64,000 nt of DNA from the NCBI GenBank assembly GCA_964016885.1, contig OZ024762.1:11718001-11782000 (forward strand), written 5' to 3'. Positions 2,809-57,365 of this stretch are shown here, piece after piece. Both the position numbers and the translations under genes were made by a program. The DNA comes from Eledone cirrhosa (lineage: Eukaryota). The notes beneath the pieces were generated by a model. It did not search any database and was not told where the DNA came from. It was given only the letters and a program-made list of their open reading frames with translations. Positions within the stretch are counted from its first letter, which is position 1. Each line of letters starts with the position of its first letter.

Positions 2809-4854
2809 GCTACTAGAATCAATTCTGGCTTCCATGTCTGAGTTTTGTATATTTATATGACCCATCCCTTGAATTAAAGCACACACACACACGTGCGTTG
2901 AAGCTCTGTCAGTCCAGCGACGAGTATTCCCGTTTGTCCAAAAGAACAACCTAATCGTTAAATTAACATGCAAATGTACCCTTAACGAAATTCTCAGGAA
3001 GATTCAGCGAGACACAGTGTATGTCTGTCACCCTTTGAATTATAGGTACAACTCATTTTTTTTTATTTTCCCCGCTGAGTAGGACTGAAGCAACGTGAAA
3101 TAAAGTGTCTTGCTTAAGGGGACGATGTAATGTTGGGAATCAAACGCACACCCTTACAATTATGAGCCAAACAACCTAACCACTAAGCCACACGCTTACA
3201 CACACAGAGAGACAGAAATACACACACACACTCTTGACCAACTGCTGACTCATGTTCATCAAAAAGATTCAACATTCTTAAGACAAAGGAAGGAAGACTG
3301 CAGTCATAGTTATAAAATTATTTGAATACTGAAGAAGAAAAAATGAACTAACGCAACAGAAATTTTTTTAAATCAAAAATTTTAAATAAAAGCAATCAGA
3401 GATATGAAATTAAATAATAAATAAAAATAATTTGTTTCTTTCTTTATTTCAAAATTATAAAATTCAAATCGCTTCATTGTTAACATGTGTATGTTCAGGT
3501 CCCAAATAATAGGTGGGGAGGGTGGAAATTCGACAATTTTTCATGATTGACTCCCTGGATTTATTTTAAACATCAAAATTTCGCCCAGGATAGATGAGCA
3601 AATTTAATAAGGGGGGGGGGGGCATTATTCTGTACAGAGTTATTCCCCCTTATAAGATTTTTTTAAAAAAATTAGCAAGGTGTATAGCTATTGCTGGGTT
3701 GACGAGAATACTATGGTGAATAAAATGTTTTTTCTCTTCTGTTAAAGGTATTAATAATTAGCCACAAGATGGTGGACTGGCAGTAATCGGTAGAGCGTTG
3801 GACAACATACTTTATGGCATAGAACTACTGTTCCTTACACCAATGCAGTCTAATGTGTAAATCAGCAGTTAGACTAAAATACCATTTAAGGCATAACCAT
3901 AAAAAAATGATTGAACTGAGAAAATTGTTGAACCCTCATACGTGGATATACAACGAGAGAGTCCTTCATGTATGTATGTGTGTGTGAATATCTGTATGTA
4001 CATATGTAACGGGAAGTTTGTGAGTTCAGTTCTTACTGTAGTAGAAGAGTGAATGATGATTTGTATTGGTTGCAGATGGCCGTGACAGTTAACCAATGTG
4101 TATATCTGGAAAGCGAAAGTGTTTGATATCGTGGGTAAAGTGATTTCCCCCGATCATACTGCCAGTGTTATAGAAGAACGAACGATCCCATAACGGAAAC
4201 ACTTAGATTAACATTTGTTACAGTCAAAAGGCATGAACAACAAACAAGGAAAAACTGTGCGTGAGATATGTTTGGGTATTAGGAAGAAATCGTGTGTGCA
4301 GCGATACAAGGTAACTTGCCTTATAGAAGTGGCTGGCTGTTATTTTTTGTGGTTCTGCCCATGGGCAGACACGGGGTGTATTTTTGCCAAGGACTACATC
4401 TTACTAGTGGTTTGATGGGTAGACAAAAAATGCGTCTCCAGCCGGAGACCAGAGCAAAACTCTGCCATGTTTATCGTAGGAAAGCTCCCGTTCACCTTCA
4501 TTGAGAACTTGTTTTGTCTTCACCCTCAGACCACTGGCGTCACAAGGAGCTAACCTTTAAAAAAAATGACCATTAAATGACACCCGGGGGGGTCATGTGG
4601 ATAGGTTTCTCTTAATATATTTGAATTTCAACGAAGTCATAATTGCAGACACTTGATTGTTGATAAGGCACAGTTATTGATGTTTAATGATGATGGTACA
4701 CAAATACAGAACTACATACACACAGAGAAAGAGAGGTAGATAGAAAGAATTTAAATATGCCATGTAATTGTAGATAAGATAAACATTTAAACAATTTTAT
4801 TTCTTCTAACGATAACTACGAACCACCGCTTCAAATCTACCACCATGAACTTAT

Positions 4855-7358: not shown

Positions 7359-8033
7359 AAGAGATCAGGGTAGTGAGTGAAAGAGTTAATTCGTAAGATG
7401 ACACTACACAGGTGGTAAGAATGCCATCTTACTCCCTCCCCTATGTTCTACAGCGCATCTCTCTTTACCATCCTCCGGGGAAACACACCTTCTCCATTCT
7501 GTCCGCCGGGGCTGTGGGGAGGCCATCAATATGATTACTTAACCCTTTCGTTACCATATTCCTGTTCTATATACTATTTAACAGAGACGGTAAGTTACCA
7601 TCAAAGATGATAAAAAGCTGTGAATGCTATGTCTATCATTATCAAAACACACAATGTATTTACATTTTCTTTAATATTGTAGCATTGAAGGAATATATCT
7701 TTCATTGTATCATCCTTTGTAGTGTTACCGAGGCATGTGTAATGTTATTTATGTTTATATTTAAAACATTTGTTATGTTATTCTACTATTAACTATGACA
7801 CGTTTAAAATTCTTCAGCTATAAATAATAAAATAATTTTAAAAAAATAAAGTGACATTTTAGTTCTACAGGCAAGTTCAGCCACCCCACCCGCCGCGATG
7901 AAGGAATTTAACTATGTACGACATCCAAAAATCTTTGACCACTCCCTGTGACAGAAAAGAAAATTAAATTTTAGAATTGTTTTATATGATACTACTGCTA
8001 TGTTTTGATTCCATGCCGATATATGGACTGTAC

Positions 8034-8129
8034 CCCCCTTGATAAGTTCAGCTAGGTCCCTGCCGTCCTAACACTACTGGGTTAGTTCAGATCTAGCTGT
8101 CGAAACGGCTGGAGCCCAGCCGTCGGGGG
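8034..8129 (+). ncRNA. Type I hammerhead ribozyme, U3-A8 core variant (sense, TDP2 intron 1)
   Basis: CCCCC-UUGAUAA-G..CAGCUAG/CUAGCUG.C-GAAA-CGGCUGG agc CCAGCCG-UC-GGGGG. GUC cleavage site after 8124. Confidence 0.75.
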
Positions 8130-9096
8130 TCTCCCTGTATTAGTTTTGGAGGCAAGCCAACACTCGTAGAATTGCCACCAGTGATGGCGAGGCTGAGATG
8201 CTTGAATAACCAAGCACCCTCGCGGGCATCACCCGATGCCAGTTGAATATGTTATTATTGTTGAAACACATTTAGAACCACTAGCATTGTTCCCTAGTGC
8301 TACTCTCTTATTACCCTGGCCATTGCCACGTTTTATTTTACATTTGTTTAAATCCATTTACAGTAATTTTCTTTTATCATTATCAAACATGTATCCATAG
8401 TGCACCTGAGCACTGTACACAATAATTTCATTATTATTGTTATTATTATTGTGGCTGGATGGTTAGAGAATTGGATTCACAATCTTGAGGTTGTGAGTTC
8501 GATTCCTGGACCGGGCGATGCGTTATGTTCTTGAGCAAGACACTTTATTTCACGTTGCTCCTTCTACCTGGAGTTGCGACCGATAGATAGTACTAGCAAC
8601 TGGAAAGACCGACGGAAACATTGTTTCCTCGGTCCGATTTGACGAAAGTCGATCGATATATATATTATTATTTAAATTATGATGGATTGGCAGTATCGGT
8701 AGAGGGTCGGACTTCATGCTTTGCAACGTAGAGTTACGGCCTTTTAAAACAAAGACAGTGTCTTTCATTAGAAATATAGTAATGAGAGGGTTATCTGAAC
8801 CCATCATAATTTTATGTAAAAATGTTATGTGTGTATGTGGTGGGTTACTTGCTCATGTGTCTGCATGTATGATGTGTTACTCAGTCGTGTGTGTATGGTA
8901 GGCTGTTCAGTCATATATGTGTGTGTGTGGTGGGTTACTCAGCCATGTGTGTGATTGTGTATGGATGAAATACTCAGTCATATATGTATGTGTGTGTGGC
9001 AGTGTATTCAGTCATACATATGTGAGTATGTAGTGTGGCAACCTTATATGCGGCCAGCTAAACCTGCTTAAGTGTGAGCTTTTTTTCTTTCTTTCT

Positions 9097-10215
9097 TTAA
9101 CCCTTTACCGTTCACATTACTCTATATATACTATTATATTTTCACAGTAAACGCTTTACCTCACATATCTCACATAACATTTACATTACTCTATATATAT
9201 ACTATTATATTTTCACAGTAAAGGCTTTACCTCCCATAATATCTCGCATAACATTTACATTACTTTATATATACTGTTATATTTTCACAGTAAAGGCTTT
9301 ACCTCACATAACATCTCATAACATTTACATTACTCTATATAAACTATTATATTTTCACAGTAAAGGCTTTATCTCACATAATATCTCACATAACATTTAC
9401 ATTACTCTATATATACTATTATATTTTCACAGTAAAGGCTTTACCTCACATAATATCTCACATAACATTTACATTACTTTATATATACTGTTATATTTTC
9501 ACAGTAAAGGCTTTACCTCACATAACATCTCATAACATTTACATTACTCTATATAAACTATTATATTTTCACAGTAAAGGCTTTATCTCACATAATATCT
9601 CACATAACATTTACATTACTCTATATATACTATTATATTTTCACAGTAAAGGCTTTACCTCACATAATATCTCACATAACATTTACATTACTCTATATAT
9701 ACTATTATATTTTCACAGTAAAGGCTTTACCTCATATAACATTTACATTACTCTATATATACTATTATATTTTCACAGTAAAGGCTTTACCTCTCATTAC
9801 ATTTACATTACTCTATATATACTATTATATTTTTACAGTAAACGCTTTACCTCACATAATATCTCGCATAACATTTACATTACTCTATATATACTATTGG
9901 ATTTTCACAGTGAAGTCTTTACCTCACATAACATTTACATTACTCTATATGTACTATTATATTTTTACAGTAAAGACTTTACCTCATATAATATCTCGCA
10001 TAACATTTACCTTACTCTATATTTACTATTATATTTTCACGGTAAAGGCTTTACCTCACAATTATCTCACATAATATCAAATCTATAAGATTTTGATATT
10101 TATTTTAAGAATAATACCTTAACTTCAGTATGAACGGCTGGTTACAGCCAGTTTGAACAAAAACAGATGAGAGAATTCTGGCTGGATACGGCTGGTTTAA
10201 ATGCTAAAGGGTTAA
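9097..10215 (+). mobile_element. piggyBac-like MITE with expanded internal 72/60-bp tandem array
   Basis: TTAA-CCCTTT...AAATGCTAAAGGG-TTAA enclosing repeats of ttacattactctatatatactattatattttcacagtaaaggctttacctcacataatatctcacataacat. Confidence 0.85.
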
Positions 10216-10870: not shown

Positions 10871-11191
10871 TACAAGTATAGAACAGCAGGCAAAATGATG
10901 TTATGGGGCCTGCAAAGCTTACCCCTGCTTCAGGAAAGACAATGGATGAATTCCTTGGTTGAGCAAACTTATGTTACAAAGGCTTTACAGGCATGCATAT
11001 TATTAATGGTAAAAACTGCAGTCTGTAGTTTGAGTAGATTTAGCTGCTATTTCTAGCACTAGGTTGTTTCTTGTGTAGTGTGCACAACTTCCATTATTCT
11101 CTACATCCAATATACCAAACTGTCATCGCCTTAGGTCAGTCCTTCAATGGTTTCTGAAATTTGGTAGACAGAAACTGTGTGAAAGACTCAC

Positions 11192-11226
<35 letters not shown>

Positions 11227-11236
11227 AACCAGTAAG

Positions 11237-11330
11237 ACCCCGACAGCTGAGCTCAAGCCGTTTCGACGGCTAATTCTGGACTAAATGAAAATTTATCCTG
11301 GTATTTAAATAGCCGATCTTCTCAAGGGGT
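11237..11330 (-). ncRNA. Type I hammerhead ribozyme, U3-A8 core variant (antisense, TDP2 intron 2)
   Basis: ACCCC-UUGAGAA-GA.CGGCUA/UAGCCGUC-GAAA-CGGCU..AGCUG-UC-GGGGU. Homologue of 8034-8129. Confidence 0.75.
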
Positions 11331-11869
11331 AATTCCATATATGGTCAAAGTGATTGTCAAAAATCAGTAGTAATTCTGTGGTTGCAAATTAGTAGGGGAG
11401 ATGGTGGCTAAACCTGCCAGTAGGAGAAAGAGGGGAGGGGGTGGAGTAGACCCAATCAAGCGTAGGTAGTGCCAGCTACAGCTGGGCATGAGGTCAAAGA
11501 AGATACAGGGGAGGGGGAGGGGGAGGAAGTCGGAACGGTAGGTAGAACAATGGGGGGTAGAGTATTGAGTACTTTGGTGCGTTATGGTCCACCTGGTTCC
11601 TTACCACATTTCCTTCGTTATATATATATATATATATATTAAGCAGTAATTCTTTGCTTTAACTTTAATCTGTTGTTTTAATAAATATATATATATATAT
11701 ATATAAACACACACATACACGCGCGCACGCACCTACATATATTTACTTATATATCTGTGTGGGTGTGTGGTAAACAAAACCTGGTTCATTAATTCAAACA
11801 GAAATACCTTGTGTTCGTATACAGGACTGAGTTACCTCCCCTGACATCATTTTCTGTCAGTGAGAGATA

Positions 11870-50130: not shown

Positions 50131-50197
50131 TTTTATTATGCGCATTTCAAAAACAATCATCATCAAGCAATAATATTTGTGTTTTCATCAGATAAAA
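50131..50197 (-). ncRNA. Minimal type I hammerhead ribozyme (Penelope-type)
   Basis: UUUUAU-CUGAUGA-AAACA...UGUUUUU-GAAA-UGCGCA-UA-AUAAAA. Stem II is weak. Confidence 0.7.
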
Positions 50198-50258
50198 CAG
50201 GAGAATATGATATGAAGGCTAAAAAACACTTGTGGATAGTGCAGTTTTAAATCAACAT

Positions 50259-56485: not shown

Positions 56486-57365
56486 GTGAGTAAAAAGATC
56501 TAGTGTTATTTTCTTTGAATGCCAATAATAAAGAATTCTGACGTAACCTTTTACCATTTACATTACTCTATATTTACTATTATATTTTCACAGTAAAGAC
56601 TTTACCTCACATAATGTCTCACATAACATTTACATTACTCTATATAATGGAGGCACATGGCTTAGTGGTTAGAGCATTGGCCTTGCAATCGAAAGGTTGT
56701 GAGTTCAATTCTCAGACCGGGTGATGTGTTGTTTCCTTGAGCAAGACACTTTATTTTACATTGCTCCAGTTTACTCAGCTGTAGAAATGAGATGATAGGG
56801 ACCCCACTGCAAAGTGGTCGTGGAGGTGCCACGGCAAAAAAGCACCCAGCACTCACTGTAAATGAGGTTGGTGTTAGGAAGGGCATCCAGCTGTAGAAAT
56901 CAAGCCAGAACCAGTTCCCATCCCACCCTTGCAAGCAGGGAAAAGCAGACGTAAAATGAAATGATGATGATGAAAATGATACTATTGTATTTTCATGGTA
57001 AAAGCTTTATCTCACATAATATTGAATCTATGAGATTGTAATATTATTTATTTTTATACCTTGACATCAATATGAGCGGCTGGTTACAGCCGGTTTGAAC
57101 AGAGAGAGGTGAGAGAATTCTGGCCAGATATGACTGGTTACAACCAGTTTGAATAAAAAGAGGTGAGCAAATTCTGGCTGGATATGACCGGTTACAACCA
57201 GTTTGAACAGAAAGAGGTGAGTAAATTCTGGCCAGATATGACCGGTTACAACCAGTTTGAACAAAACCACTCCACCCTTTACTATGACTAAACTACCCCA
57301 CCTATAAAATTGATATAAAGCCGTAAAGAATAAAAATGAAAAAATGCACTTGTGTTTATTTTTAG

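Follow-up and report, generated by a model that had tools for sequence, protein, structure and literature searches.

The described systems closest to the element reported here are Penelope-like elements (PLEs) of the Hydra clade, including Hydra-1_Obim from Octopus bimaculoides (Craig, 2021; PMC8557442). According to the parts of that source available to us, these elements have one ORF of about 710 aa with a C-terminal GIY-YIG domain and are characterized by the motifs DKT, RW[K/R], CxCx5C, CxxC, and CxH and by the lack of CCHH; they use (TA)n targets, form tandem or inverted insertions with a tail at one end, and carry a type I hammerhead near the 3' end. All these features are shared by the family described below. 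A size below 3 kb and a CUGANGA hammerhead are treated there as general, not diagnostic, traits of the clade; all Hydra rows in its File S2 have the CUGANGA core and a stem III of 3–4 bp with a loop of 1–3 nt, and the descriptor used may not admit other cores. The function of PLE hammerheads is called unclear in the same source.

Hammerheads with a U3-A8 pair occur naturally and are active in vitro (Perreault, 2011; PMC3088659), and about 1,300 such motifs have been reported from Schistosoma PLEs (Cervera and de la Pena, 2014; PMC4209133), as far as the accessible portions of these papers go. The U3-A8 variant is already known, including in PLEs, and the motif studied here is not a new ribozyme class. 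It shares with the natural U3-A8 set and the hammerheads of the Schistosoma mansoni PLE Cercyon the core covariation, the PLE context, and the long helix II with an unpaired base near its 5' end, most copies being solitary or arranged as opposite-strand pairs. In contrast, helix III is missing from the Schistosoma motifs, which are assumed to require dimers and belong to a different PLE clade, whereas our hammerhead has a stable helix III and is predicted to fold as a monomer.

For the PAc/Poseidon element of Anolis, the available sections of Frangieh et al. (2024; PMC11167929) describe two reverse transcriptase (RT) start sites that define the tail, an AT-rich target, and cutting of both strands; our family agrees in these points, the cutting of both strands being presumed. 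The hammerhead was dispensable in vitro, since mutants inserted normally, and RNA ends at the cut were not seen. Animal non-LTR retrozymes, as described in the available text of a preprint (bioRxiv 10.64898/2026.07.22.740005), also have a type I hammerhead and are PLE-related, but they consist of tandem repeats that do not code for protein and have a hammerhead per unit, whereas the insert analyzed here is the end of a coding autonomous element.

This insert lies in a 64,000-nucleotide stretch of the Eledone cirrhosa genome (the window). Our main reading, to which we give a probability of about 0.8, is that it is the 5'-truncated, two-armed 3' end of an autonomous PLE with Hydra-clade motifs, inserted in (TA)n, and that its U3-A8 hammerhead likely cleaves a minority of the element RNAs in vivo.

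The insert and its parent element

The relevant features of the window are as follows.

7862..8132, plus strand: older copy of sister subfamily B (the 8034 copy), a 5'-truncated pLTR with U3-A8 and N7 = U; hammerhead at approximately 8031-8132
11195..11224, no strand: (TA)n target tract at priming site 1, seen in the sequence
11222..11562, minus strand: main arm of the insert, 341 nt of 3' UTR/pLTR that contain the complete hammerhead and end at priming site 1
11237..11330, minus strand: type I hammerhead comprising stem I, U3-A8 core, long stem II, hairpin-bearing loop II, GAAA, and stem III
from 11330, minus strand: 5' strand of stem I, read from the sequence
11325-11319, minus strand: hammerhead core UUGAGAA, read from the sequence
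11264-11261, minus strand: GAAA box, read from the sequence
11242, minus strand: C17, with the cut predicted at 11242/11241
11418-11403, 11371-11365, and 11342-11334: blocks common to the insert and the 8034 copy, upstream of the hammerhead, read from the sequence
11561..11620, plus strand: inverted arm of the insert, the distal 60-61 nt of the 80-nt tail of the PLE, up to priming site 2
11621..11641, no strand: (TA)n target tract on the tail side, seen in the sequence

The minus-strand U3-A8 hammerhead with its cut at 11242/11241 had been proposed in the initial annotation, and direct reading of the sequence agrees. The motif has three helices with helix I open, the strands N3 U4 G5 A6 N7 N8 A9 and G12 A13 A14, the A15.1-U16.1 pair, and H17, and its Watson-Crick pair 3-8 is U3-A8. 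Within the core, N7 alone separates it from the 8034 copy (UUGAUAA), as had also been noted; outside the core, the 11.2-kb copy and the 8034 copy differ in the base after G10.1 (A vs. U) and in stem III. The shared upstream blocks were located in both copies, and the (TA)n tracts were found on both flanks of the insert. All 40 scored candidates in a search for the 8034 type matched, the other copies being 82–89% identical.

A three-way junction is the RNAfold minimum free energy (MFE) structure for both copies. The previously suggested extension of stem I is present in the predicted MFE structure of the 11.2-kb copy, and in the monomer fold its stem I closing pair has a probability of 0.97 and the pair 15.2-16.2 a probability of 0.75. 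The fold is significant against shuffled sequences for the 8034 copy (z = -2.6 and -3.5), whereas for the 11.2-kb copy it is no better than shuffles (z = -0.3 and -1.1). Rfam reported no hammerhead in the window or in 11150-11400, giving only matches of microsatellites to miRNA models.

Searches covered the host's own assembly (3.0 Gb). With the insert as a query, at least 78 matches were obtained (40 of 316 candidates scored), most of the long ones 94–100% identical, and the 20-mer behind the cut, i.e., the 3' end of the unit, has 15,634 exact matches in the genome. Copies vary freely in 5' extent, and longer ones extend upstream via the UTR into an ORF. The parent unit is 3.54 kb long, with intact ORFs of 717–719 aa encoding RT and GIY-YIG domains; these lie upstream of the same hammerhead, in line with the Penelope pLTR-like origin that had been suggested, and the anticipated linkage was thus found. 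The main arm is 99.4% identical over 337 nt to an intact unit at locus L280, and the inverted arm matches positions 3464-3524 of the unit at 100% identity. Tandem copies, also looked for, occur at L280 (C1:91472900-91481000), where five cores follow one another head to tail at intervals of 3,542-3,543 bp and at least two of the ORFs are intact (719 and 717 aa). At locus L065, the order is an inverted truncated copy, a partial pLTR with tail, the ORF, the UTR/pLTR, the hammerhead, the tail, and (TA)n, which is the textbook PLE arrangement.

Motifs read by eye from the translation include RWR, DKT, YRDD, CxCx5C, VIY..YIG, and CxxC-E..N-CxH. The single ORF with RT plus a GIY-YIG domain at its C-terminus (YRDD and VIY..YIG), together with pLTRs from partial tandems, an inverted 5'-truncated copy, and a tail at one end, is characteristic of EN+ PLEs. 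Features of the Hydra clade present in the protein and its insertions are DKT in place of DKG, the N-terminal RWK motif as RWR (a conservative change) with no GxKF/Y, the CxCx5C linker, CxxC and CxH around the catalytic E and N with no CCHH, and (TA)n as the insertion target. The general Hydra traits of size and core are absent, as the unit has 3,542 bp rather than <3 kb, and UUGAGAA rather than CUGANGA. Pfam gave no families for four ORF fragments or for the whole ORF, and sequences from the PDB gave no matches to it, and hence the domain names rest on the motifs read by eye. At least 2,027 ORF homologs were found among 8,000 scored candidates, and the top one carries PF01541, which we take to be GIY-YIG. 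The insert is almost certainly the end of a PLE with Hydra-clade motifs.

Compared with the Hydra rows, the family has a U3-A8 core (C·A, U·G, and C-G in sister subfamilies), at least six pairs in stem III, a loop II of about 35 nt, a 3.54-kb unit, and an 80-nt tail. Identity with Hydra-1_Obim was considered and rejected, as its row in File S2 differs in core, stems, and flanks; in the part of that source available to us (PMC8557442), its protein is closely similar by eye but its hammerhead sequence is different, which makes it another family. The element is a young, autonomous PLE family distinct from Hydra-1_Obim.

Core variants and sister subfamilies

An exact 16-nt core pattern has 3,067 U3-A8 matches in the genome vs. 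2 for a reversed control, and so the motif is not due to chance. Only 18 exact matches have C3-G8, and the family consensus is indeed not the canonical one. Allowing all four combinations at positions 3 and 8 yields 3,824 matches, of which 739 are mismatched; among the first 100 matches listed for this pattern, there are 79 U-A, 18 C·A, 2 U·G, and 1 C-G.

The fetched copies were sorted into subfamilies by loop II, with C-G rows sought by pattern. U-A is found in 30 of 32 copies of subfamily A/A2 and in 29 of 31 copies of subfamily B (the 8034 type). On the other hand, subfamily C (51 copies) has 38 C·A, 6 U-A, and 6 C-G cores, and subfamily D (29 copies) has 13 U·G, 8 C-G, and 6 U-A. Subfamilies A/C and B/D form two lineages, 65–69% identical over the motif, across which G5, A6, G12-A14, and the stem pairs are kept. 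Thus, conservation holds for the fold, whereas amplifying lineages did not always maintain the 3-8 pair: there are sister subfamilies that multiplied while having a C3·A8 or U3·G8 mismatch in the core, and this pair is not strictly required.

A tree built from 156 copies after masking of positions 3 and 8 supports the two lineages (100/100), and in it the U3-A8 label changes at least eight times on supported branches. The tree gives no order for the core changes, because the bootstrap has not stabilized, junction sequence is included in some of the rows, copies decay once inserted, C3-G8 rows were chosen by pattern, and the root is a midpoint one.

Stem covariation had been taken as a sign of selection for ribozyme function. 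The compensatory change in stem II is real (10 A-U vs. 10 G-C rows in a 20-row alignment), but it is a single event between the two lineages, and whole subfamilies carry C3·A8 or U3·G8, so that the argument is weaker than it had been put. In these 20 hand-picked rows, 86.7% of cells pair vs. at most 45% for slid partners; covariation reached by 0 of 500 shuffles of the same rows reflects their relatedness. At the level of lineages, there are about three double changes, i.e., in the pair 3-8 and in stem II columns 36/84 and 42/78. The junctions of the copies, considered next, provide better evidence of ribozyme function.

Arm structure and junctions of the insertions

Complete 3' ends run 80 nt past the position that borders on (TA)n in the window copy, and the end of the parent tail recurs, reverse-complemented, as the first 60 nt of the insert. 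A 9-bp inverted repeat near the ends of the insert (11601-11593 and 11232-11224), reported in the initial annotation, is in fact a direct repeat, occurring twice in complete 3' ends and appearing inverted because the 60-nt tail is inserted backwards.

The family has two fixed 3' ends, 80 nt apart: site 1, located 20 nt behind the cut, and site 2, at the end of the tail. A tail and two start sites were already known for PLEs, and the present arrangement extends them. The 80-nt tail compares with the 30–40 nt reported for Penelope in literature available to us in part, and both priming sites end in TAT, matching the target, whereas PAc priming is described as non-homologous in the accessible part of the paper (PMC11167929). 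Arm structures were sampled at about 340 loci. Among 107 head-to-head two-armed loci, obtained from several searches and hence not a random set, 101 combine site 1 with site 2, one has site 2 at both ends, and 5 are unclassified. The one clear exception to the arm rule is L199:880-1210, an almost perfect palindrome in which either end carries the full tail.

In the window copy and at least a dozen others found with it as a query, the two arms share no sequence, and therefore two priming events are needed. The recurring 61-nt tail arm is enriched by this query and is not claimed as a hot spot. The first 100 matches listed for the 20-mer behind the cut yielded 89 distinct arms that could be measured, besides 2 duplicates; the remaining nine arms comprise 5 with the full core and 4 starting at the cut. 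Of the measured arms, 63 of 89 begin 31–55 nt upstream of the cut, in loop II, and hence the window copy with its whole ribozyme is of a minority type. Contigs from two of four sequencing runs of unspecified kind from one study contain loose ends at both priming sites; such contigs do not reveal RNA ends and carry no weight in our conclusions.

The positions of junctions, defined by the first templated base of a copy and counted with a 3/8 filter (1/4 at -1), have a peak at the scissile bond. Exactly there, 316 copies start, compared with 42 at -5, 31 at -2, 17 at -1 (under the stricter filter), and 12 at +4. The raw count at +1 is 140, but 60 of the first 100 of these have a TCA point variant and 23–40 are possible junctions, leaving about 32–56. 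Corrected for the 3/8 filter, the peak corresponds to approximately 840 of 15,634 arms (5.4%), in agreement with the 4 of 100 listed arms. Inspection of 30 matches at the scissile bond identified 29 true junctions and one A-run inserted at the cut; the junctions are often palindromes in which both arms start at G1.1 with one untemplated base between them. The A-run is a single case, located at L207:1380-1560: there, a copy that is intact in other respects is interrupted by two bases and the A-run precisely at the scissile bond, which would resemble the joining of a polyadenylated 5' cleavage product to the 3' product.

The simplest reading of the peak would be run-off from a cleaved 5' end, and copies starting at the scissile bond are likely a DNA record of cleavage in vivo. 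Judged from these genomic junctions, the hammerhead probably does cleave in vivo. For PAc, no RNA-seq reads began at the hammerhead cut, according to the part of the paper available to us (PMC11167929), in contrast to the peak of genomic junctions in our family.

A C·A pair is expected to cleave poorly. In the subfamily-C-tagged group, rich in C3·A8, the same peak is present (23 matches, 16 of them true junctions, among 1,192, vs. 3 at -5), with a share of about 3.6% vs. 5.4%. This control did not separate cleavage from other causes, because the peak persists. Of the nine arms with a core in the group, seven have C·A and two U3-A8, and the latter may explain part of the peak. Either C·A retains activity, or short copies come from masters with a paired core, or the stop is non-catalytic.

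Proposed mechanism, alternatives, and neighboring features

According to our main reading, an RT-endonuclease, probably acting as a dimer (as predicted for the anole PLE), would nick both strands of (TA)n. Reverse transcription would be primed by one nick at site 2, the end of the tail, and by the other at site 1, which lies 20 nt behind the scissile bond. Both cDNAs would in most cases end within loop II of a ribozyme that is uncut, about 5% of cDNAs presumably running off RNA already cut after GUC, and the two cDNA ends would then be joined via microhomology or a few untemplated bases. In the window copy, the site-1 arm would have been read for 341 nt and the site-2 arm for 60–61 nt. The likely job of the ribozyme would be to free the element RNA from longer or tandem transcripts, with only partial activity tolerated because cutting the 3' copy splits the ORF from the priming sites.

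An explanation in which the ribozyme of this element is inactive or irrelevant in vivo seems unlikely. The G1.1 peak would then reflect stopping of RT at the junction of stems III and I or at a G-run, or cleavage by a nuclease of the host, and a role as a protein-binding or priming signal would preserve the fold. Such a hypothesis accommodates the persistence of the peak in the C3·A8-rich group, the multiplication of subfamilies with mismatched cores, the clear RT stops at structure elsewhere in the motif, and, in the portion of the study available (PMC11167929), the dispensability of the hammerhead for PAc insertion in vitro. It does not explain why a stall at the base of stem III, which should leave C17 or U16.1, is so poorly represented, -1 and -2 being about 10 times rarer than 0, or why the loop II stop is spread over 20 nt, whereas the G1.1 stop is one nucleotide wide, often occurs in both arms, and has an untemplated base. 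Nor does it sit well with the maintenance of G5, A6, G12-A14, and the stem pairs between such diverged lineages. It is doubtful, though somewhat less so, that the RNA passes through a circle, as in the model put forward by Cervera and de la Pena (PMC4209133, seen in part): a tandem transcript would be cut at both hammerheads, the unit ligated, and the re-formed junction read by RT from sites 1 and 2, the G1.1 starts representing unligated linear units. This model differs from the main reading because full cleavage and ligation are the normal path in it. The array of five cores at C1:91.47-91.49 Mb and the location of the priming sites just 3' of the cut speak for it, but later duplication can also make tandem arrays, subfamilies with mismatched cores amplified too, and religated and uncut junctions look alike in DNA.

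Fold-back (self-priming) of one cDNA, proposed for Penelope palindromes in the accessible part of PMC3846280, could account for the inverted arms without two priming events, and it is common for the two arms to stop almost at the same point of the template. We consider this improbable, as in the window copy and the dozen or more others whose arms have no common sequence, neither arm can copy the other. At first sight, the non-coding insert between (TA)n tracts, with its 9-bp inverted match, resembles a retrozyme or MITE-like element of about 400 bp that is independent, non-autonomous, and equipped with short terminal inverted repeats, and a retrozyme-like origin had been suggested. The chance of this is negligible: it is refuted by the 99.4% identity with the UTR of a unit that has an ORF, copies run into the ORF with varying 5' extents, and the unit is coding and 3.54 kb long. 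The retrozyme identity was rejected since there are no short tandem non-coding units, each with a hammerhead, and the terminal-inverted-repeat identity since the parent element has the 9-mer in direct orientation.

Extending the main reading of a two-armed PLE end with partial cleavage, we tentatively suggest, as a possibility that is rather less than even, that the ribozyme cuts in vivo, that cutting of the 3' copy wastes an insertion, and that selection favors a weakened core. At least two times, the core would have gone from C3-G8 to U3-A8 by way of a mismatch, which was C·A in one lineage and U·G in the second, with amplification at every stage; the genome would hold a single-nucleotide record of cleavage; and a strict rule of one primer per site would reflect a dimeric retrotransposase. 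If the weakened-core reading is true, nature has run an experiment in this lineage on the role of PLE hammerheads. Cleavage rate and insertion structure are directly comparable in a family that offers about 15,600 young 3' ends, intact ORFs, the scissile-bond peak, and four core variants. The mismatched subfamilies show that compensatory change in the core of a ribozyme can proceed by way of intermediates that amplify. The U3-A8 motif escapes Rfam as well as standard CUGANGA descriptors. In the literature covered, which excluded most subscription papers, Repbase, and Dfam, we saw no mention of this family and none of PLE copies that begin at a hammerhead cut, of amplifying C·A or U·G cores, or of a rule of one arm per priming site in two-armed PLE insertions.

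Several other features were observed in the window and at the loci of the family. An unrelated second hammerhead at approximately 50140-50200 on the minus strand (core at 50191) has the canonical C3-G8 pair and a minimal palindromic stem III and adjoins (TA)n; near-identical motifs are found at loci L011, L022, and L099, the first of which also has a Hydra-type endonuclease ORF. Hydra-type RT/endonuclease ORFs from different families adjoin copies of the window family at L062:97-2072, L023, L039, L064, and L054, which is consistent with common (TA)n targets. A different PLE-type RT with a CxxC..C GIY-YIG domain, apparently from another clade, is encoded at L069:268-2494 (minus strand), L015:2-910 (minus strand), and L049.

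Arrays of one 72-bp minisatellite flank the insert at 9114-10074 and 13263-14334, with a related unit at 20468-20580. Weak tRNA-like matches at 19687-19744 and 56658-56715 and tandem units of 150–190 bp at 28458-29156 and 32046-32492 presumably represent tRNA-derived SINEs. Finally, a 1.7-kb (TA)-rich tract occupies 25998-27705, with a GC content of 15% in its 2-kb bin.
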